Assembly (NCBI GenBank): GCA_044892505.1
Contig: CM097882.1
Location: 293,632,001-293,696,000 of the forward strand
Source: Schmidtea nova
Taxonomy: Eukaryota
Direction of reading: 5' to 3'
Length of the DNA stretch: 64,000 nt
The number at the start of each line of letters is the position of its first letter. Within the stretch, counting starts at the first letter, position 1. This document shows, piece after piece, positions 808 through 56,433 of the stretch. Made by a program: the position numbers and the translations under genes. The notes below the pieces were generated by a model that saw only the letters and a program-made list of their open reading frames with translations, searched no databases and was not told the origin of the DNA.

Positions 808-1866
808 CAAGGATTCGGAGCGGAGCGGAGCCCGGAGCCCTGTGCGGCTCCGGAGCGGATAATTTGCTTGGAGTAAAGAGCGGAGCAGTGAGTAAAAAAA
901 TTAGAAGGAGCGGAGCGGTTCCGCTCCGCGGTTCCGTTCCGCTCCACATTTTTTTAAAATTTCTTTTCGAAAACGAATGTAGTGTCAGTTTTGGAAAATT
1001 AGTGTAAGTTTTGTTATTTAGGTATCAATTCAAAATTTTTCTTGCCGGGAAAATGAAAAGTTTGCATGTTGGGTCCAAGGTATATAGATTGTTGGGATCT
1101 AAGTTTGTGTTGATGTGTCAAATAACAGCTAATTATAATCTGAAAATTTAAATGTTTTGATTTATATATATTTTGTTTAATTCAGTTTGAGAATTTTAAA
1201 TTATTTACTGTTTGTCTTTTTAAATAATAATATCCTTGGGTAAGTAAGTTTATCATTATCCTCTTGATATTTAGTTTCATTATTCTTCACTTTTCTTTAT
1301 AGGAAAAATATATGAATAATATAAAACATAAAAGTTATTGATACATATATATTTACATGAATTTATATGTAATGTGTAATGTGAGACACAAAGTTTAAAT
1401 AAATTAAAATTAAGAAGTTAAAATAAAGGTAAATTTAAATTAGTTATTTATTTATACTTTTACTATATTTTCATAAGTTTTTATATTTTGTTGGGCCCGC
1501 CAAATCACCTAAAAACACAATAAAACGAACAAAAGCATGAAACAATAAAGAAATAATAAAAATAAAAATAGCAAGAAAAACAAATTAAAAATAACAATAA
1601 AACGACAAATAATAATTGATAAATTTTCAGTAAAAGGAAATTTTGAAAATAAACCGGTAAACAACCGCAAAAGGGGGCCTGAAATAAGAAAAAATAGAAT
1701 TAAATAAAATAATAGTACAAATAATTAATTAATTACTTGGAAAATCAGGACCACCCAGCGAGAAACCGGAAAAGGAAACAAAATAATGTTTAGATTAGAA
1801 TAAAATAATAAAAATACTTTGATGGACGGCCTGATCCTGATTGGTCAATCCAACCAGACGGATCAG

Positions 1867-1874
1867 TATAAATA
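1867..1874 (+). promoter_or_regulatory. Candidate LTR TATA box (TATAAATA), with a candidate splice donor at 2002 (GAA|GTAATT)
   Basis: The same TATAAATA lies ~400 nt into the A LTR (38890-38897, minus), followed ~100 nt later by AG|GTAAAT (38789). Confidence 0.55.
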
Positions 1875-2995
1875 CCGATCCAAAAATCACAGACAGAGAC
1901 GTTTTACATTTTCACTCACAATCAAGACTAAACTTTGATTTGAGTAATAATTTTTGAAAGAACCGAACTTCATACAAGGAACCACACATTCAAGTACGGA
2001 AGTAATTTTTTTATGTTATCTTATATGATGTACCATGATTTTTATTTAATTAAAAGTTTATATGTAAACGTTATTTTATTTTTTCATTGATTATTTTTAT
2101 TGACACTTTAATGCATATAGCTATACTTCCTATGCTGCTCACGCGGCGAGGGAGTCCGAGTCGTCGTCGTGGGGCCTCAGGGTCTCACATGGCGGTTCAA
2201 CCTTTTTATTGTTTCTGGTTTTCATATTTAATTTGGTAGTTGAAATAATTAAATTACATCATTCAAATTTAACTAGATATTTATCAGCGAGATTAGAGAA
2301 TTTTAATGCTTATTTAGTCGAGTAAAATTTTCAGTCACAGAATATCGATAATGCGAATACGTCCAGACAGTTTTCTGGCGATAAGTAAAAAGTCATCATT
2401 TAGTTGCACAGAGGACGAGTGTCGAGGGCTAAATAGGGAGAGTAGCTGGGTAATGGGAGACACCCCAGGGTAGGGTGTATTCAGCATCATAACGCATAGA
2501 AAAATGAGCCTAATTTGAACCTCCAGCATGGAGAATAATGATAAATAAATAAAACTAATTCATATAATTTCGATAAAATGGAAAATTTCAATGAAGGTTA
2601 AAGTCCGATTTCATTCGGAATTAGTATCTCACCTACAGCGTCACCCGATCGATAAATACCGATCGCATTGGAATGCGACGGAGAATCCACATCAAGTCAT
2701 GAAACTCTAAAAATAGACCGATCGTCGTACATGGCGCGGATATCTAATTTATCTTCCGATCGCTGTATATAGCGCGGAGAATTTTCGAATAAATTTTATA
2801 TTTTCCTTACTGCTGTACATAGCACAGGATTAATTATGAACTCTTTATTCCGACCATGGTAGATCACGGCGGAGAGAAAGAAAATTTACCTTATTATTTT
2901 TAAGTAACTTTTGTGATTATATACAGTATAATTAAATTATCAACGAATTTTCCCCCCTTAACTCAGATATTTTATATCCAATAAATGTAATATAG

Positions 2996-3475
2996 ATGTC
3001 GACAGCTGAACTTATAAATCGATTGACTCAACTACGGAATATGGAACAAGTGAATCTGCGAAATGGAAATATCTCGCAGCTCAAGGATCTACCAGCATCG
3101 ATATTGCGGACCCTCAACTGCCAAATGTATAAGTGGCGACAGGGGTTTGGCCGAAAATGCCCGTTCTCGATATGGACAGGAGGGCACGACCAAATATTCT
3201 ATCGAGGAGGACCGAACTGGCCGATTTCTCAAAGGCCGTACTCGAACAAATTTGGCCGCCTTGTCGTACTGATCAAGGACACCGATGGACGGACAAGCCG
3301 TGTAATTTATTGGGGGCATATCCCTCGTCGGGAACTATGCCAACTAGGCCTACACGAATTCCTGCCACGAAAACCGTTCGGCAAGGAGTGCCAGAAAGGA
3401 CAACCCTCATTCTCTTGGGCTCGTCTCCGTCAGAAACCGATTAACAGCGAACTGCATAGCCTGTTTCGGAGATAA
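2996..3475 (+). CDS. LTR-encoded ORF1, unknown function (159 aa)
   Basis: ATG directly after a TAG acceptor-like site. Segment IKDTDGRTSRVIYWGHIPRRELCQLG aligns with FLDEQNRPRWLLSTGMMSGRALHQLG in the A LTR ORF 37174-37806. Confidence 0.6.
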   Translation: MSTAELINRLTQLRNMEQVNLRNGNISQLKDLPASILRTLNCQMYKWRQGFGRKCPFSIWTGGHDQIFYRGGPNWPISQRPYSNKFGRLVVLIKDTDGRTSRVIYWGHIPRRELCQLGLHEFLPRKPFGKECQKGQPSFSWARLRQKPINSELHSLFRR

Positions 3476-3661
3476 GAACTGATTGTCAAATCTTTAAAAG
3501 TTGTGATTAAATATTAATATTCAGCAGTGTTTTTGTTTTGTTGTTTGGAGTTTTAGTATTGTGTTTTTAATAATTCATATTCGTGACCTAATAATCCTAT
3601 GATCAGATTTTAAATTTCATATAATTAAATCATAGAGTAAATATCCTAAATAAATTATAGA

Positions 3662-4258
3662 ATGAATCCCGATTTGATGCAGAGAGAATTAGAAAAGATG
3701 TGGCGGATTCGGAGGGCCCAGGACAAGGAAGTGGGTCTCCTCAAGGCACAATTGATCAAAGCAGAGGCACAGATTGCATATTTGCGCAAAAGCTGGTTTG
3801 CTCCGGCCCGAATGAAGGAGCAAATCAGTAAAACCGAGCGCGCCCAACAGACTGCAGCCGAGTACCAAATGGAATGGGAGGCTACAAAGATAGAACTCCG
3901 AAAATGCCTCCATTCCGTAACTGCCTCATATATTGAGAGGGAGCTCAGAGAGCAAATCCGTCCAGTTACGTACCAAGCTTGGACATCAGAGAAGAAGACT
4001 TTGAATTCCATTGGTACGGATGTCGCAGATCTAATCGAAAATCGGAATGAGACAGCTCCTGCAGTAAATTCAACCACCTCATCGGTAAATGCGCACCAGA
4101 AACGCAAGCGCATTGGGCAGAAACGGCGGAGACAGAGAAAATTATTTGCCCAGCAATTACAAAGCCAAGTCGATGGTCTACATCAGATGACTGAGGAGGC
4201 ATTATTGACAGAGATTTTTCCTCCGGCGGGAGTTTTTACCGAACTCATTAAAAATTAA
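3662..4258 (+). CDS. LTR-encoded ORF2, coiled-coil plus basic NLS-like motif (198 aa)
   Basis: Homologous to A LTR ORF 36422-36985 (WFAPARMK/WFNPERVK; KRKRIGQKRRRQR/KRRNRLGAKKRRERR). Confidence 0.75.
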   Translation: MNPDLMQRELEKMWRIRRAQDKEVGLLKAQLIKAEAQIAYLRKSWFAPARMKEQISKTERAQQTAAEYQMEWEATKIELRKCLHSVTASYIERELREQIRPVTYQAWTSEKKTLNSIGTDVADLIENRNETAPAVNSTTSSVNAHQKRKRIGQKRRRQRKLFAQQLQSQVDGLHQMTEEALLTEIFPPAGVFTELIKN

Positions 4259-4498
4259 ATAAATTGTTGTATTGGCTTAAGAATTTTATCGTTCATTTAA
4301 ATTGATTTAATTAGCTTTACCAATGATTAGGTAAAGATAGAACAAAAGTATAAATTCATTTTACAAAATATCGAATAGAGATAATTAAATAATTAAGCGA
4401 GCATTCGTTGAAACACTTCTCGCAGACTGAGCAATAATAAAATTAAATTTTCTGAAAGATTAACGCGGAATACATAAGTAGATGATTAAAGCATAAGT

Positions 4499-4640
4499 CC
4501 TTCTAACGGCAGCGATGAACCCGTGAACATAAATGGGGAGTAGTACTAGCGATAGTGCTCACCTGCCCATCATTGTTCAACCACCCTGCGCATCACCAAC
4601 TTGATTATATAGGGAAATAATCAAGGGCGCTTGAGTGTAG
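4499..4640 (+). other. Conserved structured RNA element near the LTR 3' end (U5-like)
   Basis: Blocks CCTTCTA(A/T)CGG, G(A/G)ACCC and GCTCAC, a GNRA hairpin and an AA-bulged hairpin with a TAGGGA loop recur with compensatory changes at 36127-36257(-) and 55565-55697(-), and partly at 55331-55460(+). Confidence 0.65.
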
Positions 4641-4732
4641 AATTGCAATTTTATGCATGATCATGGATGGGGGATCCCTAGTCATTGTTAGAGCATTTTT
4701 CATCTAACCCCTCCATGAACCCAGCATAAATT

Positions 4733-4750
4733 TGGGGGCTCAGCCGGGAT
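4733..4750 (+). other. Primer-binding site, tRNA-Pro type
   Basis: TGGGGGCTCAGCCGGGAT versus the canonical Pro PBS TGGGGGCTCGTCCGGGAT; 6-nt TAAATT spacer after the LTR. Confidence 0.85.
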
Positions 4751-28164: not shown

Positions 28165-31100
28165 TGTTGGGCCCGCCAAATCACCTAAAAACACAATAAA
28201 ACGAACAAAAGCATGAAACAATAAAGAAATAATAAAAATAAAAATAGCAAGAAAAACAAATTAAAAATAACAATAAAACGACAAATAATAATTGATAAAT
28301 TTTCAGTAAAAGGAAATTTTGAAAATAAACCGGTAAACAACCGCAAAAGGGGGCCTGAAATAAGAAAAAATAGAATTAAATAAAATAATAGTACAAATAA
28401 TTAATTAATTACTTGGAAAATCAGGACCACCCAGCGAGAAACCGGAAAAGGAAACAAAATAATGTTTAGATTAGAATAAAATAATAAAAATACTTTGATG
28501 GACGGCCTGATCCTGATTGGTCAATCCAACCAGACGGATCAGTATAAATACCGATCCAAAAATCACAGACAGAGACGTTTTACATTTTCACTCACAATCA
28601 AGACTAAACTTTGATTTGAGTAATAATTTTTGAAAGAACCGAACTTCATACAAGGAACCACACATTCAAGTACGGAAGTAATTTTTTTATGTTATCTTAT
28701 ATGATGTACCCATGATTTTTATTTAATTAAAAGTTTATATGTAAACGTTATTTTATTTTTTCATTGATTATTTTTATTGACACTTTAATGCATATAGCTA
28801 TACTTCCTATGCTGCTCACGCGGCGAGGGAGTCCGAGTCGTCGTCGTGGGGCCTCAGGGTCTCACATGGCGGTTCAACCTTTTTATTGTTTCTGGTTTTC
28901 ATATTTAATTTGGTAGTTGAAATAATTAAATTACATCATTCAAATTTAACTAGATATTTATCAGCGAGATTAGAGAATTTTAATGCTTATTTAGTCGAGT
29001 AAAATTTTCAGTCACAGAATATCGATAATGCGAATACGTCCAGACAGTTTTCTGGCGATAAGTAAAAAGTCATCATTTAGTTGCACAGAGGACGAGTGTC
29101 GAGGGCTAAATAGGGAGAGTAGCTGGGTAATGGGAGACACCCCAGGGTAGGGTGTATTCAGCATCATAACGCATAGAAAAATGAGCCTAATTTGAACCTC
29201 CAGCATGGAGAATAATGATAAATAAATAAAACTAATTCATATAATTTCGATAAAATGGAAAATTTCAATGAAGGTTAAAGTCCGATTTCATTCGGAATTA
29301 GTATCTCACCTACAGCGTCACCCGATCGATAAATACCGATCGCATTGGAATGCGACGGAGAATCCACATCAAGTCATGAAACTCTAAAAATAGACCGATC
29401 GTCGTACATGGCGCGGATATCTAATTTATCTTCCGATCGCTGTATATAGCGCGGAGAATTTTCGAATAAATTTTATATTTTCCTGACTGCTGTACATAGC
29501 ACAGGATTAATTATGAACTCTTTATTCCGACCATGGTAGATCACGGCGGAGAGAAAGAAAATTTACCTTATTATTTTTAAGTAACTTTTGTGATTATATA
29601 CAGTATAATTAAATTATCAACGAATTTTCCCCCCTTAACTCAGATATTTTATATCCAATAAATGTAATATAGATGTCGACAGCTGAACTTATAAATCGAT
29701 TGACTCAACTACGGAATATGGAACAAGTGAATCTGCGAAATGGAAATATCTCGCAGCTCAAGGATCTACCAGCATCGATATTGCGGACCCTCAACTGCCA
29801 AATGTATAAGTGGCGACAGGGGTTTGGCCGAAAATGCCCGTTCTCGATATGGACAGGAGGGCACGACCAAATATTCTATCGAGGAGGACCGAACTGGCCG
29901 ATTTCTCAAAGGCCGTACTCGAACAAATTTGGCCGCCTTGTCGTACTGATCAAGGACACCGATGGACGGACAAGCCGTGTAATTTATTGGGGGCATATCC
30001 CTCGTCGGGAACTATGCCAACTAGGCCTACACGAATTCCTGCCACGAAAACCGTTCGGCAAGGAGTGCCAGAAAGGACAACCCTCATTCTCTTGGGCTCG
30101 TCTCCGTCAGAAACCGATTAACAGCGAACTGCATAGCCTGTTTCGGAGATAAGAACTGATTGTCAAATCTTTAAAAGTTGTGATTAAATATTAATATTCA
30201 GCAGTGTTTTTGTTTTGTTGTTTGGAGTTTTAGTATTGTGTTTTTAATAATTCATATTCGTGACCTAATAATCCTATGATCAGATTTTAAATTTCATATA
30301 ATTAAATCATAGAGTAAATATCCTAAATAAATTATAGAATGAATCCCGATTTGATGCAGAGAGAATTAGAAAAGATGTGGCGGATTCGGAGGGCCCAGGA
30401 CAAGGAAGTGGGTCTCCTCAAGGCACAATTGATCAAAGCAGAGGCACAGATTGCATATTTGCGCAAAAGCTGGTTTGCTCCGGCCCGAATGAAGGAGCAA
30501 ATCAGTAAAACCGAGCGCGCCCAACAGACTGCAGCCGAGTACCAAATGGAATGGGAGGCTACAAAGATAGAACTCCGAAAATGCCTCCATTCCGTAACTG
30601 CCTCATATATTGAGAGGGAGCTCAGAGAGCAAATCCGTCCAGTTACGTACCAAGCTTGGACATCAGAGAAGAAGACTGTGAATTCCATTGGTACGGATGT
30701 CGCAGATCTAATCGAAAATCGGAATGAGACAGCTCCTGCAGTAAATTCAACCACCTCATCGGTAAATGCGCACCAGAAACGCAAGCGCATTGGGCAGAAA
30801 CGGCGGAGACAGAGAAAATTATTTGCCCAGCAATTACAAAGCCAAGTCGATGGTCTACATCAGATGACCGAGGAGGCATTATTGACAGAGATTTTTCCTC
30901 CGGCGGGAGTTTTTACCGAACTCATTAAAAATTAAATAAATTGTTGTATTGGCTTAAGAATTTTATCGTTCATTTAAATTGATTTAATTAGCTTTACCAA
31001 TGATTAGGTAAAGATAGAACAAAAGTATAAATTCATTTTACAAAATATCGAATAGAGATAATTAAATAATTAAGCGAGCATTCGTTGAAACACTTCTCGC

Positions 31101-31403
31101 AGACTGAGCAATAATAAAATTAAATTTTCTGAAAGATTAACGCGGAATACATAAGTAGATGATTAAAGCATAAGTCCTTCTAACGGCAGCGATGAACCCG
31201 TGAACATAAATGGGGAGTAGTACTAGCGATAGTGCTCACCTGCCCATCATTGTTCAACCACCCTGCGCATCACCAACTTGATTATATAGGGAAATAATCA
31301 AGGGCGCTTGAGTGTAGAATTGCAATTTTATGCATGATCATGGATGGGGGATCCCTAGTCATTGTTAGAGCATTTTTCATCTAACCCCTCCATGAACCCA
31401 GCA
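28165..31403 (+). repeat. Element B 3' LTR (3239 bp), containing copies of ORF1 (29673-30152) and ORF2 (30339-30935)
   Basis: Direct repeat of 1489-4726, followed by the ATTT TSD. Confidence 0.97.
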
Positions 31404-36012: not shown

Positions 36013-36030
36013 ATCCCGGCTGAGCCCCCA
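36013..36030 (-). other. Element A PBS (tRNA-Pro type)
   Basis: Identical to the B PBS, including the TAAATT spacer. Confidence 0.85.
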
Positions 36031-36421
36031 AATTTATGCTGGTGTGTTGGTTTGATGGACAACTGAGATCATTAAGATTTTATATGTTAGGGTGATCTCG
36101 CCAACATAAAAACGTTCCCCCGCTGACACCCATGATGTATCCCTAACTACTCATCATGTTGGTGCTGTGTCAACGTTGTGAAATGACAAGGCAGGTGAGC
36201 AACCTTTCGGCTACTATTCCCTTGTTTATTCACGGGTCCACCACTACCGTTAGAAGGTGTCTGTGGATTTCTTTCGGTCCCACTTATGCTCTTTCCTTTT
36301 GTCTTAGGGTAATTTACTTTTTAGATATCTGCAGCTTTAAATGAACCAGGTTTTCATTACTTTTAATTCTCATACCTACTCCAAACAAACAAGACAAGTC
36401 AAATCATTCATTTATATACAT

Positions 36422-36985
36422 TTATTTATAATTCAATAACACTGATGGTCTAATTACATTCAGAAGTTCTTGTTCCGATAGACCACTGAGCAAGTCCACT
36501 TCTATGTCTAGGCGATCGGCATATGCACGTCGCTCTCTCCGCTTTTTCGCCCCGAGGCGATTCCTTCTCTTTGTTCGTTTTGAGCCTGCTGGAGTTCTCG
36601 TTGTCGACTCGATCGTCGTGATCGCGACTGCATCGGTTTCAGTTTGGGTACTCATAGTTACCGATATCGAGTCCACCCATCGGTTAAAAGTGCTCGCTCT
36701 GATCATTGGGCGCAATTGCTCGGTGATAAAGTCTTGGGTCGACACCCTTAAGTAATTTGCCAGCTCTAATTTCAGGGCGGCGACCTCTCTCGCTTGTTCG
36801 TCGACCGTTCGTTCAGCTCTGTATCGGGCTTGCAAGATGGCTTTAACCCTCTCAGGATTAAACCATGTCGTCTTGACCATCTGATGTTCGTCATTCAGCT
36901 GTCTTAAGCGATTTTCCAAAACTCGTGAACGCGCCTTATGTTCCCGCGCCTCTTGTTTATAATCTCGATCTTTGGTTTCGTTCAT
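36422..36985 (-). CDS. Element A LTR ORF2
   Basis: Homologous to 3662-4258; likely ATG at 36985, 2 nt after TTTACAG. Confidence 0.75.
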   Translation of the reverse strand: MNETKDRDYKQEAREHKARSRVLENRLRQLNDEHQMVKTTWFNPERVKAILQARYRAERTVDEQAREVAALKLELANYLRVSTQDFITEQLRPMIRASTFNRWVDSISVTMSTQTETDAVAITTIESTTRTPAGSKRTKRRNRLGAKKRRERRAYADRLDIEVDLLSGLSEQELLNVIRPSVLLNYK

Positions 36986-37173
36986 GTCTGTAAATATAAC
37001 CTCAATTATGATATAGGTCATGTGTCCGGTCTTTCAGTCATCATTTCGTTATTAAACAACTATACCTCATCATCAGGATATTCTCATACGCTCGAAACCA
37101 AAACAAGACCATTCTCACACAAATACATTTATTTTTATATTTACAACAAACATTCTTTCTCGGGCTGTGTCGA

Positions 37174-39334: not shown

Positions 39335-40620
39335 TTAATTTTTTTGTGCGAATTGAATGTTGATGGACGGTTTGTATTTTTTTATGTAAAAAGTCTCGGA
39401 AGCTAATCTTTGTAATGAATTTTTGAATCCCTCTTCTAGAATCTGGCATTTTGTTTATTCTATAGATGGAGTTGTTTTATGTACTTTCTCCCAGTGTTCG
39501 TAATAATTACTGGTTTTGTTTTTAGTGTGTTCATTAAGTCGGGTGCGAAAAGTTCTATGTGTTTCTCCTATGTAAGTAGCGTCACATTTTTGACAAGAAA
39601 GTTTATATACTATATTTTTGGAAAAGCAAAAGCATCGGGTTGTGGAACGGCAAAGACATTTATGTTTGGAGATGTTGGAAATTGGTGGCTTTCGTAGTTG
39701 TGATTTTAACGGTGCGGAGGTTATGAACGTTGGACGGATGTGGATAGGCAAATCTGTTTGATTAAAAATGTTGGTGATTTTGTTGGCTGTAGTGTCATTT
39801 AAGAAAGGTAATCTTAGATATGTTGTGTGTTTGTTATTGTTATTGTGTTTCTGGCGTTTCCTATTGTTGCGTTTATTGTAGTATGGTTCGTTAAGGAAGT
39901 GTTTCTTTACAAAGTCTTCAGGGTATCCATTTTGGAGGAATCGTATTTTGAAGTTTTCTAATGTTTCTTGTATTTTGTTTGAGTCTGAACAGTTTCTTAT
40001 GGCTCTTTTTCTTTCTCCTATTAGTAATGCGATTTTGCGTTGAAGTGGAACGTAGCTTTTCCATGGGAGGATATGACCACTATGTAAACTTTTAGAATAT
40101 AGCTCGGTGTTTGCATTTAGTGTATCTTGGCTTTTTGTGAAACTTACCATGGTATCTAAAAACGGTATTTTACCTTCTGTGTTCGGTGTTTCAAAAGTAA
40201 ATTGTATGTTGGTGTTAGTAGAATTTGCGTGTGATAGGATTTGATTGAGAGGGATTGTGGAGACTATGAAGATGTCGTCGATGTATCGTTTCCAGAAAAG
40301 TATTTTGTCCGAAATTACAAATACGTCTCTGCCGTTAAACGCAGGACAACAGTACTTCTGGGGATCTCTTGATGTTTCCAATCTTTACGGGTCTATTCCT
40401 CTTCACGGAGAGAATAACATTTTCGATATCGCAGCTTCTTTCTTTGAAACTCATAAAGCCAACACTGACCTCGCAGACTTAACTAAACAAGACTTTATAG
40501 AACTTCTAAAATTAGCAATAAATTCAGATACTGTCATAATTAAAGAAAAACCATTCAAACAAATTCATGGATTAGCCATGGGTAATAACCTTTCTCCCAT
40601 CTTAGCCATCTTCTACATAA
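39335..40620 (-). mobile_element. Penelope-like element fragment (RT plus GIY-YIG) with 5' inversion
   Basis: Minus: WKRYIDD, IPFLD, NGYP, VYKLSCQKCDATYIGETHRTFRTRLNEH, then after an in-frame stop ILE..R..E..YI..KPSINIQ. Plus (40320-40620): SLDVSNLY, KQIHGLAMGNNLSPILA. Confidence 0.9.
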
Positions 40621-41129
40621 CTAACCACATTTCCACCTCTGGTCTTCTTTCTACCTGTACACGTACCATCGGATACAATATTTCCTCCTCTAGTAATAGT
40701 TATGGCTAATGCCTTGCCTACTTCAGCAGTAATAGATACTTCGTTATCTCTTTTCAATTTACCAGTTCGAAACGCATCCTCACAATCTTCTGGTAGAACT
40801 CTTATTGTTCTGGGAATGAATTTAGCTTCCAAGAATGCTGAGTAACTACTTGATCCACAATAATATTCGAATTCGGCCCTTTGTAGGCGACATTCTTTTA
40901 TTCTCGTACGATAAAAATCGGTTTCTTGATAAATATGGTATTCAAGCTTTTCCCCTAACTGAACTTTGTCGGGATAAGCTTCGGCACATTCGATTGTGTC
41001 TACTAAAGAATAAATTCCTGCTAGAGTTGGATTCGTACAGTCGTATGCAATTAATGGATTCACTTGCTTGATGATTCCCATCATCATTAACAGTAAGAGC
41101 ATTATGTTTGCCATTCCATAAAAATTCAA
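40620..41129 (-). pseudogene. Element C env N-terminus
   Basis: MANIMLLLLMMMGIIKQVNP|LIAYDCTNPTLAGIYSLVDTIEC..ECRLQRAEFEYYCG..EDCEDAFRTG; aligns with B env; truncated by the Penelope insertion. Confidence 0.85.
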
Positions 41130-42339
41130 AATTATTATTATGTATTATTCCTTCGTTGAACGCGTATTGGGGTGGACTGTTATTAGACTTTTGCCAAAAA
41201 TCGTTCTCTTTAATCCATGACCCAAGATACCATTCGATCGTTGGTATGATGTGTTCTAATTCAGGTTCTAACCGTGATTGATCGTTTCCAACCTTTGTGA
41301 GCAACTTCTTAATAAACATTGCTAGTATTATTATGACTTTTCCTTTTGTAAATCCTTCAAAATAGAATTTTTCTATGGCATCTGATATCTCTTGTTCAGT
41401 TAATGTTTTTGGGAATTTCGACATAACCTTTCTAACTGATTGTGTAATCATTTCCACATTTATTCTTGGTTCTGATTCAATTTCTAAACTAGGTTTAATG
41501 ATTCTGATTATCTGTTTCAGGTTTTTCTTGATTTCGTCATCCTGACGGCCTTGATCAGGTACGTTTCCATCTATTTCTTTTACTAGTCTTTCTAATATTC
41601 CTCTTGTTAATCCTCTAGTCGTTTCGAGATTCAATCTTTCTTGTGGAGGAGGTACCATATTTACCTTCTTCCGTCTACCCCGATCATCCTTTTTACTTCG
41701 TTCTCCCGTAGGAGGTACTTGTGCTTCTCTTACGGTTTCTATATTTTGAGAAGTGCTAGCTCTTATGTTAGTTTCGTGGGAATTCATCTCGATTTCTCGA
41801 TCTTCGAGGAATCTTTCTAATTCCTCATCTAAATCTACTGGCAATCTTGTTGGCTCTATTTGTGCAATTATATGCTCCTGTTCAGCCTCGTTAGGCAACC
41901 TCAGTATAGACCACTGCTCCCTAGGTGGTGTTACTGGGATTATCGTTACTATCGTAATTTCGTGTGGCAAACATCCCACATCTACTAAATATTCGTCGTC
42001 ATCGACTTGACTGCCTTGAATCATTATCAAGAATAGGAAATCAACTATTTCCTCTACTTTCTTTCTTAGTTTCCATACCTTGTGGAAACAAGATTGTTGA
42101 CATAATTGAGGATCTTTACCCGGTATCCTGATCTCTATATTTAAAGGCCCTTGCTTGTCTACTTGATGTCGGATCGCTTGTCCGTATTTTGACATCAACA
42201 TTTTTACCTGTGCCCTATACGGTGTTACTTCCTTCATTAACGGAAGAATTATCGGCACAATATTGTTGGGTTTTTGTTGAAAGTCGGTTCTAATTTCTGA
42301 CTCCTGGTGTTCTTTTAACAAATAATTAACCCAACACAA
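40942..42339 (-). pseudogene. Element C UBL plus Bcl-2-like polyprotein segment
   Basis: UBL-like LNIEIRIPGKDP..IMIQGSQVDDDEYLVDVG; BH1-like FYFEGFTKGKVIIILAMF; BH2-like LGSWIKENDFW. Confidence 0.65.
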
Positions 42340-43060
42340 TAACCTTTATTTCAATATCACAGTTTATCACAATGATTGAACAATATAAGAACTGTCTTTT
42401 TACACTGAACTTGACTGCTTTCAAGTCACTTGCTGCGAGGGATAAGTCTCCCAACGGAAGATCCCCCTTTCTGGTCCACAAACAAATGAATTAAATTTTA
42501 CTCTACAACACTACCTTTTCGGACTCTTCTTCTAATTTTAATCGGTTAATTGAAATTTTATCTCTTCGACCTCTGGTCCCACATTGCAATTTGCTTCTGC
42601 TTTTATGGTGCTTCCTCCTTAATGCTTGATTGTTCTGTCTCCAAATTTTGACATTTTAATCTACGATTCAAATTAAACTGTCATATTGTAATTTAGTAGC
42701 TCTCGCCGTTTCCACATCCTTAGAGCAAATTGAACTGTCACTTCGCTTGAGCGGGTTTCTCTCCTCTCTCGGGCTCTTCATTAGCTCGGGTTTCCCATTG
42801 TCTCGGGCTTTCCATTAGCCAATTAATTCTTAATCAATATTTTAATTTCTTAATTATTTCTTTCTGGGAACCCCCCCCCATCGATTTTATTTTTCTTTAT
42901 TTGAATTCGTCTCATAATTTGGCACACACCCATACCAATTTCCCCCATGATATATTGATTTTAAATTTTATTAATTTTTTAATTAATGTTTTAATATTTT
43001 AAAACATTTGGTGATTTTTGCAATTTTACTAATTTTATTTAATTACTTTTAAATTTTGAG

Positions 43061-43972
43061 TCACTTTGACAAAACCCCAACAATATCATATAATATTTCA
43101 ACGGGTATATTCAAAGTAATTACCCAATCTAAGATCTGTCTAATATTCTCTCCATCTCTGGGAGTCTGCATTAATTCGCGTCTCAATCTCGCCGGGATTG
43201 TCCGCGTTTCTAATAACTGTTCCATGTCCACCTCCGTGAGTATGAATATATTATCTGCATCCACTACTGGGACTTCTATTTTGACTATTTTCACCTGCAC
43301 TATATTCGGTATCCCTGGTAGAATACCACTTTTTATTAATGTTTCTGTTTTCTTGAGCGGACGTCCACATAGGTATATTTCACACGTCAACCCTTTTAGT
43401 TTTTCGCTTAATTTCTGCGATAACTGTTCTACCCTCAATTTTGGGTTTATTTTGAATTCCCACTCTTGCTGAGTTGGCATTAAAGCGGATATATCAGCAT
43501 CTTCTGTTCTGTAATCATATCGCTGTTTGGCGCCTATTTTTCTCCTGATTGTAGATATCCATGGATGATGACATTCCTCTCCTTGGGTCAGTGTTATGAT
43601 CTGCAATGCATCATCTCTTTCTCTTTCTCGCATTTTACTGGATGCTAACTTTTCTAATTTTATTTTCAATTTTGTTAGGGACTCTTGACTAGAGTTCGCC
43701 AGTTCTATACATTTTTGTATGAGGTTTTCCTCACCTCTCTTTTTCGACCCCTTTTTAGGCGTCTCATCGAATTCATCTAGTATTTTTTCTATACTGAGTT
43801 CGGATTCACTATTATCGACAAAAACTTGTTCTGCATCTGTATCAACTTGATCATCATCAATACTCTCCTCGTCTGTATCTCTTGAAATTACGTATATGTT
43901 ATTCTCGTCATGTGAAGTTAACCGTGCTAACCGGTTTTTCTCCTTTCTCATTGCGAGTTCTAACTGTTGCAA
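43061..43972 (-). pseudogene. Element C post-nucleocapsid segment with UBL
   Basis: WEFKINPKLRVEQLSQKL..EIYLCGRPLKKTETLIKSGI. Confidence 0.6.
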
Positions 43973-44084
43973 ATAAGTTAATTCTGAATCTTGACTTACT
44001 AAACAAACGGATCGTTGTTGTCTATTATCGTTACTTTTAACGCTGTTATTATCATTATTATTATTGTTATTATTTAAAGGACAG

Positions 44085-45057
44085 GACCGCTGTATATGCC
44101 CAAATTTACCACAATTGTGACATTTTATCTTTCCTACTGAATTTACCTCATCTCTTTTTATTACATTAAATCCTGAATTTCTATTTCCCCCTCGATTATT
44201 ATTATTATTATTCTCATTATCTTTATTTCGGTTATTATTAATAAAATTAGCGGGCTACGCACTCTACAAACTGACGCAACGTGTCCTTTACGTTTACACT
44301 TTTCGCAATTTAAATCGGAACATCTGCAATCTCAAGCTACATGATTATTTCTTCCACATTTAGTGCACTGCGACCTATTATTATTATTATTATTTGAGTT
44401 TATTTTTCTACTTCTACAGTCTTTAGCGATGTGTCCCTTTCTATGACAATTAAAGCATTCCGTATCGTTTTTCCGCTCATTAACTAATAAACTAGTTGTT
44501 TTTTCAATACTGTTTTCAATTAAAATAGCTTTTTATACAAGCTCATCAAAATCATCGCCTATGTGTAAACTCAATGCGTTTCTCAATACTGAGGATAGAC
44601 CTGCCCATAATTGATCTTTAACCAGCGCTCTAGTTGCATCTTGCCATGCTAACCTAGGTCCAAATGCACGTTCTGCAAGCATAATAATTTGATAGGCATA
44701 TTCCCCTACATGTTCTCCTGGATTTTGTTTTCTATTATAAAATTGTTGTCTCAATATTCGTGTCACATCACCTGGTAATATACGGTTGGTCAAAGCAACC
44801 CTTAATTCATTCCATGTTCGTGGATTATTTGCAGCTATTATATCATTATATTGCTCTCTAGCTAACCCTTTCAAATATAAAGGTAATCTTAATATCATAA
44901 CGGCTTCTGGTAAACTTAAGGCTCGAGCTAATTGAAAATATTCCGACATAAATTCTGTTAAATCCCCAGGGTTCCCGTTATATGGTTGCATTGGTATTTT
45001 TGCATGTCTAAAAAATTCCCCTCCCGGTGCATCTGCTTGATTATTATTATTTGCCAT
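44085..45057 (-). pseudogene. Element C gag (capsid-like plus three CCHC), frameshifted
   Basis: QPYNGNPGDLTEF..FYNRKQNPGEHVGEYAYQI; CFNCHRKGHIAKDC, CEKCKRKGHVASVC, CHNCGKFGHIQRSC. Confidence 0.85.
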
Positions 45058-45161
45058 ATTTACTCTATTTACTCTATTTCTCCTATTTACGACCCCGTTT
45101 AAAATTATACCGTCTCTAAGCTCAATGTTTAAAAATTTTTCGCTTTATACCCTTTGATTTG

Positions 45162-47214: not shown

Positions 47215-48697
47215 CAGGGTGTTTTTTTTTAAATGCAATAGTAATTTTTTATTGATAATTTCCATATATAATAGTATTATGAATATCGTTTTTTTGAAAA
47301 TGCAATAGATAATTATAAATAGAAAAAATAGTCTATTTTATGTTTACGGTTGAGGAAAAGATTCAAATTGTAAAATGGAGGAGTGGCAATCTAAGCTTTT
47401 CGCAGATACAAAATGAATTCATGAGAAAATACAGGACGCCCCGTGCCAAATATTTCAACCATATCAAGAATACTTAATAAATTTACAACTGGGGGTTGCA
47501 TTAAAAGCGAGCACGCAACCCGAACTAGAATTGAAACTGTTTTGATACCTTCGAAACAAACAGAAATTATTGGATATATTAATTCGAATAACAGATTGTC
47601 GACACCGGCCATAGCAACGCTCTCGAACGTCAGTAAATCGTCTGTTTATAAGACCCTGACCAAAAATGGTTTCAAATCATACCACTTCACTAATCACCTG
47701 GAATTACTTGATCGAGATGAAGAGAAAAGAAAAATTTTCTGCCAGGATATGTTTTCTAAATTGGAGTCAGACAATAATTTTGCCAAAAATATTCTATTTA
47801 CCGACGAATCAACATTTACTTTAAACGGTGAAATAAATCATCAGAATTGTAGATATTGGAGCTCCGTAAATCTACATCGCTTTCTTCCTACAAACAATCA
47901 AAATCAAGCATAGTTAAATGTGTGGGCTGGGTTGATAAATGAATCGATAGTTGGACCGTTTTATATATTAATATAAAACGGTCCAACTATCGATTCATTT
48001 ATCAACCCAGCCCACACATTTAACTATGCTTGATTTTGATTGTTTGTAGGAAGAAAGCGATGTAGATTTACGGAGCTCCAATATCTACAATTCTGATGAT
48101 TTATTTCACCGTTTAAAGTAAATGTTGATTATAATTCCCATTAGGGAATTTAAATGGTGAAAAATATCTGCGTTTATTGGAAAATGATATTGTACCCGCA
48201 TTGCGTGAGATGAATTTATATGAAACAGTCTGGTTTCAACAAGATGGGGCGCCTCCACATTACGCAATTGATGTTAGGCGGTACTTAAATGAAAATTTTA
48301 GTGGCCGGTGGATTGGACGAGGAGGAACAATGAACTGGCCAGCAAGATCACCTGATCTTACCCCAATGAATTTCTTTTATTGGGGTTTTTTGAAAGATAA
48401 TGTATATTTTGAACGGTCTGAAAGTCTTGTTTCTCTAAGAAATAAAATCGATCAAGTTTCGTTGACTATAACTACAGGTATGGTGAGAAATGTTTTGGAA
48501 GGGTTTAAAAATCGAGTGCGAACATGTTTCGAACAAAATGGAGGTATTTTCGAAAACCTTTTGAGTAAATGAATAGTGATTGGGATTTTACTTTTTGGTA
48601 TTAATAAACTTACATATATAAACCAGTTGGATCTATTTAATTAATAAGTATTTAATTATATATTAAATTGAATATTGCGTGTTAAAAAAACACCCTA
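47215..48697 (+). mobile_element. Tc1/mariner-type DNA transposon, defective
   Basis: TIR CAGGGTGTTTTTTT..AA / ..AAAAAAACACCCTA in TA context. Transposase pieces ILFTDES, VWFQQDGAPPHY and WPARSPDLTPMNFFYWG, with a frameshift, a stop and an internal inverted duplication. Confidence 0.9.
47807..48130. repeat. 160-bp inverted repeat with 4-nt (ATTA) spacer
   Basis: 47807-47966 is the reverse complement of 47971-48130; no mismatch noticed by eye. Confidence 0.93.
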
Positions 48698-49055: not shown

Positions 49056-50782
49056 CTATCGCATACAATTGACAATGTCATCAATCTTCAGCAATGCACA
49101 AACCGTTTCAGTTGCTAAAGTAATAGCACTGTGATTGATAAGAAGTGGTTGCATAACGTCATCGGCCAAAATATCAGATACACATCCGCGTTTCATATTT
49201 ATTCCGGCATTCACTTCTCCTCTAGCGTGTCGATTTCTCAACTCAGTAACCGTTTGAATTGGACTTAATCCGGAATTTTCCGCCAAAGTATATGGAATAA
49301 TCTCCAATGCTTCCGCATAGGCTCTCAGACAATATTGCATTAGACCCCCCACTTGTACGGAATAATTTGCAATATATTGCGACATGGCAATTTCCGGTGC
49401 CCCACCACCGGCAATTAGAGCAGGTTTCTTCACTAGGCAGCGTATAACACACAAAGCATCATGAAGCGACCTTTCAGCCTCATGTAACACCATATGGTTA
49501 GACCCAAACATTAAAATCGACACAATTGGACCGGGATTAACAATTCCACTAACTTTAACAATTCTCGAAGTTCCAGCGCTTATTTCCTCCACCAAATCAG
49601 CTCTACCAAACATATCCGGAGTGAAATTATCTAAACTGGCAATCGGTTTGCAATTCAACGCTTTACAATAGATTTCAACATCATTTCTTTCGATATCTTT
49701 AATCACCATGATATTTAATTTAGAGAAAAAATGCAACGCCAAATCCGTAATAGCATCTCTTAGAATACTTTTCTGTATTAAAAGCACATTACAGCCGGAA
49801 CTTTTAATTGTTTTTGCAATATTTAAAATATATTTTCTTTCCTCGCTGATCACTCGATCCATTTGACTGTATTCCGATACGACAACGCTGTGATCCATAT
49901 TTGTTTTCGGTGGTGAAATGCAGAACTCAATCAAAGCTATTTTGGCTTTTTCTACTTTTTTCACATTGCAAATAGATTCCACATGTCGGTCGATAATTAA
50001 ACCATCAACCAAAACTGTGTCTTCAACTGTACCACCGAATTTCATTGTTATTTTTATATCATTCAAATTTACAGAATGATTCGATTTGTCAATTGCACGT
50101 AAAACTGCATCGACAGCTATTGGAGCTAGCACACTCGAGTATTGACCGACGACTTTAGAATTCAATGACGTCGATGCAATTTTCAATAGGATTTCTCGAT
50201 TGGACAGGTCCATTTCTTGGGAGTGGTTTTTGAGGACTTCACAAGCAATTTCTGCTGCTTTCTGAAAGGCTTCCGATATGACAGTTGGGTGAATACCCTT
50301 GTCTAGTAGTTTTGAACAGGCTGTCAATAAACTCCCAGCAATAACGACGACAGAAGTTGTACCGTCTCCTGCTTCAATATCTTGTGATTGAGACAATTGG
50401 ACCATCTAGGCACGAAAATATTAAATCAAGCTCGAAATTAATAATTTAATTTTTACCATTTGAGCAGCTGGATGTAATAATTTCATTCTCTTTAATATAG
50501 TCGCTCCATCATTAGTTACTGTTACATCGCCTTTGCTTTCCTGAATCTGTAGGGAAAATGATAATATAAATCTAATATATAATTATTAATGTATTACCAT
50601 CTTATCCATTCCACGGGGACCTAAGCTTGTTCTGACAGTATCGGCAACAGCTAAAATAATTAAATAAATATATATTACTGAGAAAATTAATAATAACCTT
50701 TAGCTGCAGCGATATTGCTACTTCTAACAGCACTTCCTTTGGATTTATCGTTAAACTCTGATTTGCTGTTCACTGCTAGCAT
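49056..50782 (-). CDS. CCT4: T-complex protein 1 subunit delta (4 exons: 50698-50782, 50598-50650, 50457-50546, 49056-50405; 525 aa)
   Basis: [50 protein letters not shown] introns of 47, 51 and 51 nt keep the frame. [10 protein letters not shown] and SKSQD-like MVQLSQSQD favour the delta subunit. Confidence 0.92.
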
Positions 50783-54160: not shown

Positions 54161-55481
54161 AAAAATTATTATTATTATTTTAAATTTAAAAATATTTTAT
54201 ATAATTTATATATATATATATATATTATAAATACCCCCACGATATCTCAAAAATCATATTGCATCCCTATTTGCAAAAAATTACATCCATTTCATTCAAT
54301 AACATTTCCCATACCAATTCACAAGCAACATATATTTAAAATACAATATACACACATACACAGTATCATTTATTAGCATTCAATAGTTATATACACACAA
54401 GCAAACAATACTGAAAATTCTACACTGTTAAGTTAGTCGGCAACATACATCTAGAAAAACCATACAAAAATTTCTATCATTTAAACCTACCATATAAAAT
54501 TTAATATACCCAGCCAAATAGGCCATTTACTTTACAAATTATTTTTAATTTACAAAATTTTATAAAAATAATAAAAACTCAAACGAAAAAGAGTAAAGAC
54601 GAAAAAATTTTTTATCTAAAGATTTATTGATAAAAATTCAGTTTGTGGGATAAGAGTCCCCGGCAAGGATTTTTTTTTCGGTTTGTAGTACTTGAAGGGC
54701 CATTCCCCACATATTCTCTTCAAGAAATTTTCTAAAATTGATCAAAATAAATTATAATTCTGAAATAATAAAAATTTTACTTGGTTGGTAGAGCGGGCTA
54801 TTTTGCTTCATAGGAGCTCGAGTTTTGATCGGATTGACCCGTTTGGGGTGGGAGAATTTTCCTCTGGTATCGTAGTTTCTGGAAAGGTCCATTTCTTGTT
54901 GATCTGAACTATAGTAATAGTTAATTTATCAATTTAGCGAAAATTTCAGGAAATTACATTTAAAATTAATATAAGTTTTAAATTGAGTAAATTTGTCCTT
55001 TTGATTAAATTAGCAATTTTAAACAAACGGAAATTTTATTTTTATTATTTCTAAACTCGATAAAATTACGGTAATAATTAAAATTTTTCTTAAATTTCAA
55101 ATGTAGATTAAAAATTTTCTATAAAATTATAAAATTTTATGTATTAATTATCGTAAAATGCAATATTGGTAAAAATAGGGTTATATTAGTGTTTTTGATG
55201 CTCGGAATAATTTATTTGGATGCAATAATGAATTTATAGTTATGTAGAGTGTTTAGGTTGAATTTCCGATAAAATTTTGTTGAATGTTTATAGATAAATC
55301 GTTGAAGAAGGGACAAAAATGGGCAATAAACCTTCTATCGGTAGCCCTTGGACCCAGGAGATATTCGGTCAATCATAGTTTCGTATTGACGACGCTCACT
55401 GATTGCGAATACCCACCCACTTGTTACAGTACCAACGTTACATAGTGACGGGTAACAAGGTGGTTATTTCAATATTTTATG

Positions 55482-55700
55482 TGTTGGGTTGTTGATGAGA
55501 GCCATAGTAACGTCAAGGTCATATTGACGATCAACGACCCACCAATATGATCTACTTCACTCGTGTACCCATAGTTATTCCCTAACTAACTATGTTGGTA
55601 CTGTGCACGGTGGCAAGAATCTAGTGAGCATGTGAGCTTCATTGCCGAAACTACTCCTCCTCATATTCTCTTTCGGGTTCATGTTGCCGATAGAAGGACT
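55482..55700 (-). mobile_element. LTR 3'-end (U5-like) fragment 'D' of the giant-element family
   Basis: Minus strand CCTTCTATCGGCAACATGAACCCG..GCAA hairpin..GCTCAC and TAGGGA-loop hairpin; ends near CAACCCAACA. Confidence 0.6.
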
Positions 55701-56433
55701 TACGCATCTGCTTACATTTCAGTCCTGTCACATGATTACATCGTAATTATCTATTACACCCTGCTATTACACATCTACCTTTATTCATCCTAAAATATTA
55801 AATATCGATTATAAAATGTTTCACTATAATTATGAATGTATATGTTTAATCCCTTTTCTCCAGCCAGAATTTGGCTCAAAGTCACCGCATCGGCGCAAAT
55901 CCTTAAGGATCGCGACCGAGAGGCCAGTGACCTTGTGGTCAGAAACCACTAAGGCCCATCTTATTGAGTTTACTAGGTATATTATGAGAGTTTACCCGGA
56001 AATGAATAAAACAAAAATTTACTTCAAAAGTTTTATTGTAAATTACAAAAATGATAACAACAAACTATTACCATCAAATAAAATACAAAACCATATTTAT
56101 GAGTTTGACTGGCTGGTGAAATGCAAAATTTTACTTACTGCTTATTGACGCTCACATATGTTATTATTTAAATAATTATATAACTATTTAAACTTACTTA
56201 TTAGTTTTAATAAATGAGTATTTATTTATTTTTTGTAAATTTAATTTTATAATTCAATTTATTTATTTCGATTTATTGATTTATAATCCGTTAAATGATG
56301 TGTGTATCCATCATTTTTGTGCATTAATTGACTGATTTAAACAATCAAATTTTATTTTTTTTATTCTTATCTCTTATTTTTACAATATTTCATTGGGGAA
56401 TTTTTTTATAATTTTTAATAAATATTTTTTTAT

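Follow-up and report, generated by a model that had tools for sequence, protein, structure and literature searches.

A conserved, covarying RNA domain across the U5-primer binding site junction of giant Ty3/gypsy-like elements in Schmidtea nova

The window considered here, a 64,000-nucleotide stretch of Schmidtea nova contig CM097882.1, contains an intact LTR element of 29.9 kb, termed element B, whose two LTRs (1489-4726 and 28165-31403) are 99.9% identical. Its polyprotein comprises a zinc knuckle, an env-like Monjiviricetes-type fusion protein (PF24664; residues 2096-2436) lying in frame between gag and protease, and then protease, RT, RNase H and integrase in that order, followed by ankyrin repeats; RING and TRAF/MATH domains are encoded in frames of their own. 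This architecture, with its long LTRs, length of ~30 kb, single polyprotein of the above domain order, in-frame env and ankyrin and TRAF/MATH cargo, matches the Burro layout described for planarians (PMC6431247), the size, in-frame env, ankyrin, TRAF/MATH and RING all being shared with the giant gypsy-like Burro/GYPSM1 elements. As such, element B is assigned, by layout, as a Burro-like giant Ty3/gypsy element, while no named Burro sequence appeared among the 120 RT relatives listed. In its accessible part, the Burro/GYPSM1 description deals with proteins alone, and LTR RNA structure is absent there (PMC6431247). Two open frames within the LTR of element B (2996-3475 and 3650-4258) gave no Pfam match; a frame of similar length is found at the corresponding place in the LTR of the copy termed A (36422-37033).

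Table 1. Coordinates of element B, of its U5-primer binding site domain and of related copies in the window.
Feature	Position	Strand	Basis or remark
5' LTR of element B	1489-4726	+	TG...CA, 3.2 kb, 4-base target duplication
Entire conserved U5-PBS domain, ~260 bases	4488-4750	+	Alignment and folds
Variable short helix P0	4491-4513	+	B: 4491-4492/4512-4513; A and E: 4-5 pairs
PAS-like box	4517-4523	+	Complementary to tRNA-Pro 50-56, T arm 5' strand; predicted pairing
Hairpin H1	4524-4579	+	Covariation of P3 and GNRA stem; outer stem from single folds
Hairpin H2	4582-4637	+	Covariation
Terminal hairpin H3	4650-4730	+	Single folds of 5'-LTR copies
D-arm box, loop region of H3	4674-4681	+	Complementary to tRNA-Pro 12-19, also to H2 loop
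Primer binding site (PBS) for tRNA-Pro	4733-4750	+	18/18 complement
Polyprotein frame, 5,658 codons	7213-24189	+	Domain matches
3' LTR of element B	28165-31403	+	Identical motif copy at 31165-31403, without spacer or PBS
Copy A, diverged family	36013-36270	-	Complete, with spacer and tRNA-Pro PBS at 36030-36013
Copy E, a variant in which the GNRA and G-rich H2 loops are missing	55315-55544	+	Most abundant type
Copy D	55545-55712	-	H1 and H2 retained; H3 truncated by E

The final ~230 bases of the LTR, together with the spacer and the PBS that follow, constitute a conserved domain (Table 1). A sequence-only reading of the window had proposed a structured RNA at 4499-4640, shared by the LTR of element B and by three diverged LTRs, namely A, D and, more loosely, E. 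That span indeed lies within the domain, yet misses ~12 bases upstream and ~110 bases downstream. The GNRA-capped stems quoted for B, A and D were found where described, at 4543-4558 and 31220-31235 (+) in the two LTRs of element B, at 36214-36199 (-) in A and at 55651-55636 (-) in D. The looser likeness of E also held, with a profile of B, A and D matching E at 55329-55448 (+; E=4e-5), where the loops are of variant form. D is without CCCUA because the LTR end of E truncates it at 55545.

When patterns describing the motif core were sought across the genome, 6,292 matches to the B/A/D pattern and 9,098 to the E pattern were obtained, with no match to the reversed control of either. Conversely, each of the first 30 loci presenting a perfect PBS carried the motif upstream (9 B-type, 21 E-type), as did 29 of the 30 loci in a second PBS-anchored set (24 strict matches and 5 mutated copies, with 1 locus being without the motif). 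Upstream of the motif, the sequences of the various families appear, by eye, to be unrelated, and no start or poly(A) signal was conserved over 22 such regions. Identity to the polyprotein of element B among motif-bearing elements was 83-87%, 71-78%, ~53% and 30-63% over the stretches compared. DNA contigs aligned at 80% likeness pile up from 4487 to ~4750, with this summed depth, from two DNA runs of one study, lending weak and not independent support. Judging from its position, the motif would lie within the genomic RNA leader. Elsewhere in the genome, five D-type copies of the motif are spaced ~30 kb apart (G000:C1:92193544-92309905), and 10 kb of the sequence separating two such copies (L284) gave no polyprotein match. 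In some L042-like elements (L267, L268 and L271), extra PBS-like copies, each preceded by an LTR-end-like stretch, are found 200-330 bases downstream of the true PBS.

For comparative analysis, 146 distinct copies were grouped into 38 clusters, from which 29 family representatives were aligned, with nine single-copy clusters that looked decayed or redundant being left out. Blind folding of the 29 representatives with RNAalifold yielded 26 pairs, 21 of which show changes on both sides. In a curated structure of 32 pairs, 88.2% of the cells are paired and 24 pairs change on both sides; the score of this structure was 0.483, as compared to 0.218 upon shuffling (0 of 500 shuffles reaching the observed value) and 0.06-0.15 when the structure was slid. 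As relatives share changes, compensatory changes were also counted in 14 disjoint sequence pairs. Here, 4, 2, 5 and 6 such changes were seen in four helices, against 0.25-0.7 expected, together with 10, 9, 21 and 12 broken pairs, the latter being common because many of the copies are old. The disjoint contrasts confirm these four helices. The covariation noted earlier for the GNRA stem and the AA-bulged hairpin persisted in the larger alignment, and the RNA structure is real and larger than first described. Some 50 columns are at least 85% conserved among the representatives, many of these in loops. The GNRA loop, which was not part of the search pattern, is present in 37 of 37 PBS-anchored B-type copies, in 34 of which the stem below shows 5 of 5 pairs. 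Since, in addition, G-U pairs are frequent on the sense strand (e.g., U-G in 28 of 29 representatives at one pair), the sense RNA is taken to be the folding strand.

From 5' to 3', the domain begins with P0, which closes a loop holding an invariant block (4499-4511) and in which own-family pairing is better than permuted pairing (p=0.0007, the families not being independent). The strand of the loop that follows P0 (4491-4498) resembles a 5' splice site in the majority of B- and D-type families, a likeness not seen in A or E; in element B of the window, this strand bears a change. H1 consists of an outer stem, a 3x3 loop, P3 (4533-4537/4566-4570), an invariant internal loop and a six-pair stem with its GNRA cap at 4549-4552. 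The GNRA stem, which covaries across the 29 representatives, is accordingly the tip of a long hairpin. The internal loop is termed C-loop-like by virtue of sequence likeness. In the C-loop pattern, a 5-base long strand of the form N-C-A-(A/C)-U faces a short strand with 0-2 bulged bases; the E-type loop fits, with five bases in its long strand and a single bulged base in its short strand, whereas the examples listed close with U-A, where the B-type loop has C-G and the A-type loop a mismatch (PMC4551918). It had also been proposed that, in A and B, the GNRA stem is enclosed by GG(C/U)AG/CUGCC. Although 89.7% of the cells are compatible with this pairing, it presents no both-side changes, its covariation score is reached by 500 of 500 shuffles, and the 14 disjoint contrasts contain no compensatory changes and 11 broken pairs. 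The CUGCC bases belong instead to the covarying stem P3, with the enclosure being possible as an alternative conformation.

H2 comprises basal stems, a 5-base bulge, an invariant CC/GG, an AA bulge (4598-4599), a stem of 7-8 pairs and a G-rich loop (4609-4616). The AA-bulged hairpin with covarying stems described earlier was confirmed, with 8 of 8 and 7 of 10 pairs showing both-side changes. In the disjoint contrasts, 5 and 6 compensatory changes were counted where 0.7 and 0.4 would be expected. Within H2, the two E rows of the alignment are misaligned. The UAGGGA loop assigned to this hairpin in A, B and D is not universal, the loop of E being 3 bases long and GGG being absent from several D-like families. 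A pseudoknot between this loop and the upstream UUCUA did not hold up, as pairing was 75% with no both-side changes. Thus, two of the three long-range pairings originally proposed, the enclosure and this pseudoknot, show no covariation.

The base of H3 (4650-4656/4724-4730) is formed by an invariant U-rich block paired with the last LTR bases and the spacer, and so crosses the LTR end, stopping 2 bases before the PBS in B. All 15 of the 5'-LTR copies that were folded show this junction helix, its end lying 1-3 bases short of the PBS, while in E, with its 10-base spacer, the register of H3 is shifted. As the base of H3 needs the spacer, the hairpin is complete only beside the PBS, at the 5' LTR. 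The spacer that separates the terminal CA of the LTR from the PBS is 6 bases long in element B (4727-4732), sits within the junction helix and extends to 10 bases in E-type elements (L065 and other loci). The corresponding gap in retroviruses is typically 2 bases. Given a spacer of 6-10 bases, the linear DNA end would bear a long extension for integrase to trim.

The PBS complements exactly the 3'-terminal 18 bases, CCA included, of a tRNA-Pro(UGG) encoded in this genome. Nine conserved blocks of the domain were tested against tRNA-Pro 1-57, namely, the part free after priming. Two of the nine exceeded shuffled tRNA, mapping to the T and D arms; the other seven did not. With G-U pairs admitted, 22 of 29 representatives could form seven contiguous pairs between the PAS-like box and the T arm (p=0.0085 and p=0.012 in two tests against shuffled tRNA, before correction), while p=0.002 was obtained for the D-arm box. 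Both boxes had been noticed before the statistical test, and Bonferroni correction over the nine blocks gives ~0.11 for the T-arm box and ~0.018 for the D-arm box. As the T arm is similar in all tRNAs, the T-arm box pairs almost as well with tRNA-Lys as with tRNA-Pro (-9.6 vs. -10.4 kcal/mol). For the D-arm box, the mean energy is -10.2 kcal/mol with tRNA-Pro, -7.6 with tRNA-Lys and -4.9 with tRNA-Arg. Alignment of the D-arm box used its own core as anchor. Three positions next to that anchor, which played no part in placing it, pair in 25, 20 and 18 families out of 28, as compared to 5 and 6 out of 28 for those just outside. The D arm is less well matched by A (CCCUAA) and by E (CCAUAG). In A, 7 pairs can be drawn between the box and the H2 loop, while several D-like families retain the box though the complementary H2 loop is lost. 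Opening of the T-arm box upon PBS occupancy was predicted in only 7 of the 11 families examined, and nested co-folding with the tRNA, a method that cannot show crossing pairs, returned the PBS helix only.

Single folds had suggested that the invariant 5' block serves as an anti-PBS, a candidate that was rejected as the real PBS pairs no better with it than do shuffled versions (p=0.24); another window of the motif pairs better with the PBS. Nor did the block display significant complementarity to tRNA (p=0.78). Pairing with tRNA does not explain this block, the C-loop-like loop or the CC-AA-C/GGG core. Families having switched primer were also sought, and the 18 candidates, compared with tRNA-Lys and tRNA-Arg, were judged by eye to be mutated Pro sites or chance matches.

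Retention of the motif was next considered in terms of coding capacity. In four of six E-type stretches (L279, L285, L286 and L288) and two of three L042-type stretches (L280 and L290), all containing long open frames, protease is joined to ankyrin without RT, RNase H or integrase. These E-type loci are without env as well. One E-type element does encode RT, RNase H and integrase, and three stretches (one E-type, one L042-type and one D-type) gave no polyprotein match. That the motif is kept by elements borrowing RT points to a cis-acting replication signal, as does the confinement of conservation to the U5-PBS region and the presence of a helix that needs the spacer. Such a cis-acting role in replication is very probable. 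Of the possibilities raised in the sequence-only reading (packaging, dimerization, RT initiation or a ribozyme-like RNA), RT initiation is the most specifically supported, given the 18/18 match of the PBS to tRNA-Pro and the T- and D-arm boxes, whereas the ribozyme is without positive support.

The explanation accorded slightly better than an even chance is that the domain is a cis-acting platform for tRNA-Pro primer loading and RT initiation, comparable to the HIV PAS and the Ty1 boxes. In this scheme, the Gag nucleocapsid would anneal the 3' 18 bases of tRNA-Pro to the PBS, freeing the 5' strand of the T arm, which would then pair with the PAS-like box, while the D arm would pair with the box in H3. 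Until the primer arrives, the D-arm box may be masked by the G-rich loop of H2. The GNRA/C-loop-like and AA-bulged hairpins could offer a scaffold or protein-binding surface, and the basal helix of H3 would be the first barrier met by RT.

PAS function in HIV is reportedly contested, to go by the title of one paper. In retroviruses, the PAS is described as pairing with the T arm of the primer (PMC11181671), and the HIV-1 PBS segment, with its PAS, tRNA-like element and A-rich loop, resembles the present domain in having a structured U5 closed beside an 18-base PBS and a box for the 5' strand of the T arm (PMC11181671; PMC11251516). An 18-base cognate PBS and a conserved U5 box complementary to that strand are likewise found here. 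The present domain differs in spanning ~260 bases with three long hairpins, in placing this box ~210 bases upstream of the PBS, in presenting a second box that faces the D arm and in using tRNA-Pro as primer, and the Rfam HIV models give nothing above noise. Ty1 and Ty3 segments complementary to the T and D arms of the primer aid primer packaging and initiation (PMC4974528). Segments complementary to both arms are common to the extended sites of Ty1 and Ty3 and to the elements considered here, if weaker in A and E. However, the boxes of Ty1 are located within GAG, 3' of the PBS, and the Ty3 segments at opposite genomic termini (PMC4974528), whereas here both boxes are 5' of the PBS inside U5, and both the primer and the fold are other. 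The domain would thus work in a retroviral-PBS- or Ty1-like manner, while belonging to neither group by sequence or layout.

This fold is apparently undescribed. No description was found in the open-access literature, at the level of listings and the openings of abstracts. The window gave no Rfam match at gathering score, and allowing E up to 10 with B, A, D and E returned only matches far below threshold. Viral contigs held no match to two patterns, and seven metagenome matches, which were without the complementary stem and flanking blocks, were taken as chance. New here are the finding that the GNRA stem caps a C-loop-like hairpin, the extension of H3 across the LTR end, the 18/18 match of the PBS to tRNA-Pro, the boxes complementary to the tRNA arms and the retention of the motif by RT-less elements.

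A packaging or dimerization signal, with Gag binding H1 and H2 and the H2 loop kissing the CCCUA loop of a second genome, is considered rather unlikely, even though retention by RT-less subfamilies fits packaging and primer loading equally well. Retroviral Gag-binding elements include GNRA-capped and bulged hairpins, which H1 and H2 resemble. For pairing of the H2 loop with CCCUA, the third long-range contact proposed earlier, family-specific matches were seen in each of A, L042 and L096, with both partners jointly lost from E. Nonetheless, own-family pairing was not significantly above permuted pairing (p=0.07), such that this contact is suggestive at most. E, the most abundant type, is moreover without the GNRA and G-rich loops, the T-arm box is left unexplained by packaging, and retroviral packaging signals lie mostly downstream of the PBS.

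Quite unlikely is a leader element that serves translation, export or stability or is bound by a host protein, e.g., prolyl-tRNA synthetase. The compact fold and its many invariant loop bases would suit such a role, and the H2 loop resembles the anticodon loop of tRNA-Pro, fitting YU-NGG-G in 10 of 29 representatives and U-NGG-G in 4 more; a tRNA-like element of HIV that binds its synthetase provides precedent (PMC11181671). Yet 15 of 29 representatives, E included, misfit the anticodon-like pattern, the first downstream frame begins ~320 bases past the PBS, and it is to the primer that both boxes and the junction helix point. Binding of the synthetase would, moreover, be part of primer loading rather than a separate role.

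A bolder and distinctly doubtful proposal has the domain acting as an active RNA device, in which a tertiary-folded U5 RNA would capture tRNA-Pro at three points and release a decoy loop, or else in which a new class of ribozyme would mature the element RNA only at the 5' LTR. Taken alone, a new-class ribozyme that would cleave or cap the element RNA close to the motif's 5' boundary, with activity only at the 5' LTR, where the junction helix is complete, is very unlikely. The numerous conserved columns in loops, the abrupt 5' boundary of conservation, helices that may cross at the 5' end and the absence of a conserved TATA or poly(A) signal upstream could all be read in its favor, as could the hammerheads borne by the LTRs of plant retrozymes (PMC6765202). 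Retrozymes share with the present elements a conserved structured RNA in both LTRs and non-autonomous Ty3/gypsy-like members (PMC6765202), but here the hammerhead core is missing from 29 of 29 representatives, autonomous members exist and the fold is tied to the PBS. Indeed, the failure to fit known ribozymes, already noted from the sequence, was upheld, since B, A, D and E matched no Rfam ribozyme model at any threshold tried. With core descriptors, and hatchet judged by Rfam only, the hammerhead (CUGANGA plus GAAA), twister, twister-sister, hairpin and glmS cores were each found in 0 of 29 representatives and pistol in 1 of 29. HDV-like ribozymes have a 7-pair P1, an L3 with a P1.1 partner and a conserved catalytic C before P2; here, P0 has 2-5 pairs, the L3 descriptor occurs in 6 of 29 representatives anywhere in the sequence, and a conserved C before the UUUAUG block was not seen by eye. 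From the standard mechanism, moreover, a cut inside U5 would be expected to shorten the strong-stop template, and cuts in both LTRs to remove the terminal repeat needed for strand transfer. Least probable of all is a DNA-level element (promoter, integrase attachment site or single-stranded DNA fold), as, despite the location of the motif inside the LTR and adjoining the integrase end, the GNRA loop in 37 of 37 copies and the sense-strand G-U pairs, which are mismatches on the other strand, are features of RNA.

Primer-activation structures are known from the probing of a few retroviruses and of yeast Ty elements. Here, such a structure would be visible by covariation in dozens of families of one animal genome, with over 15,000 pattern matches, making the use of extended tRNA contacts by metazoan Ty3/gypsy elements readily testable. 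A platform for primer loading may also explain the copying in trans of the RT-less giant elements, and the motif provides a marker by which the whole clade can be retrieved in one search. The abundance of invariant bases in the loops suggests an RNA tertiary fold not yet described, which would be worth solving whatever its function.

The tRNA-Pro genes themselves (loci L111-L122 and L273-L278) are organized in long tandem arrays, with a spacing of 308 bases and 1,111 pattern matches. A second array, with 713-base spacing and 211 matches, bears the CGG anticodon, and the one copy examined is without the tRNA 5' end; the first 100 of the 211 matches listed were all CGG, with no tRNA-Pro(AGG) gene among them. 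Finally, other features of the window include frames at 39455-45144 (-) with retrotransposon gag, a zinc knuckle, a weak GIY-YIG match and a piece resembling the pre-env region of element B, representing another decayed or mixed element; a perfect 160-base inverted repeat with a 4-base gap at 47807-48130; and, amid repeats, an uninterrupted 449-codon TCP-1/cpn60 chaperonin frame at 49056-50405 (-).
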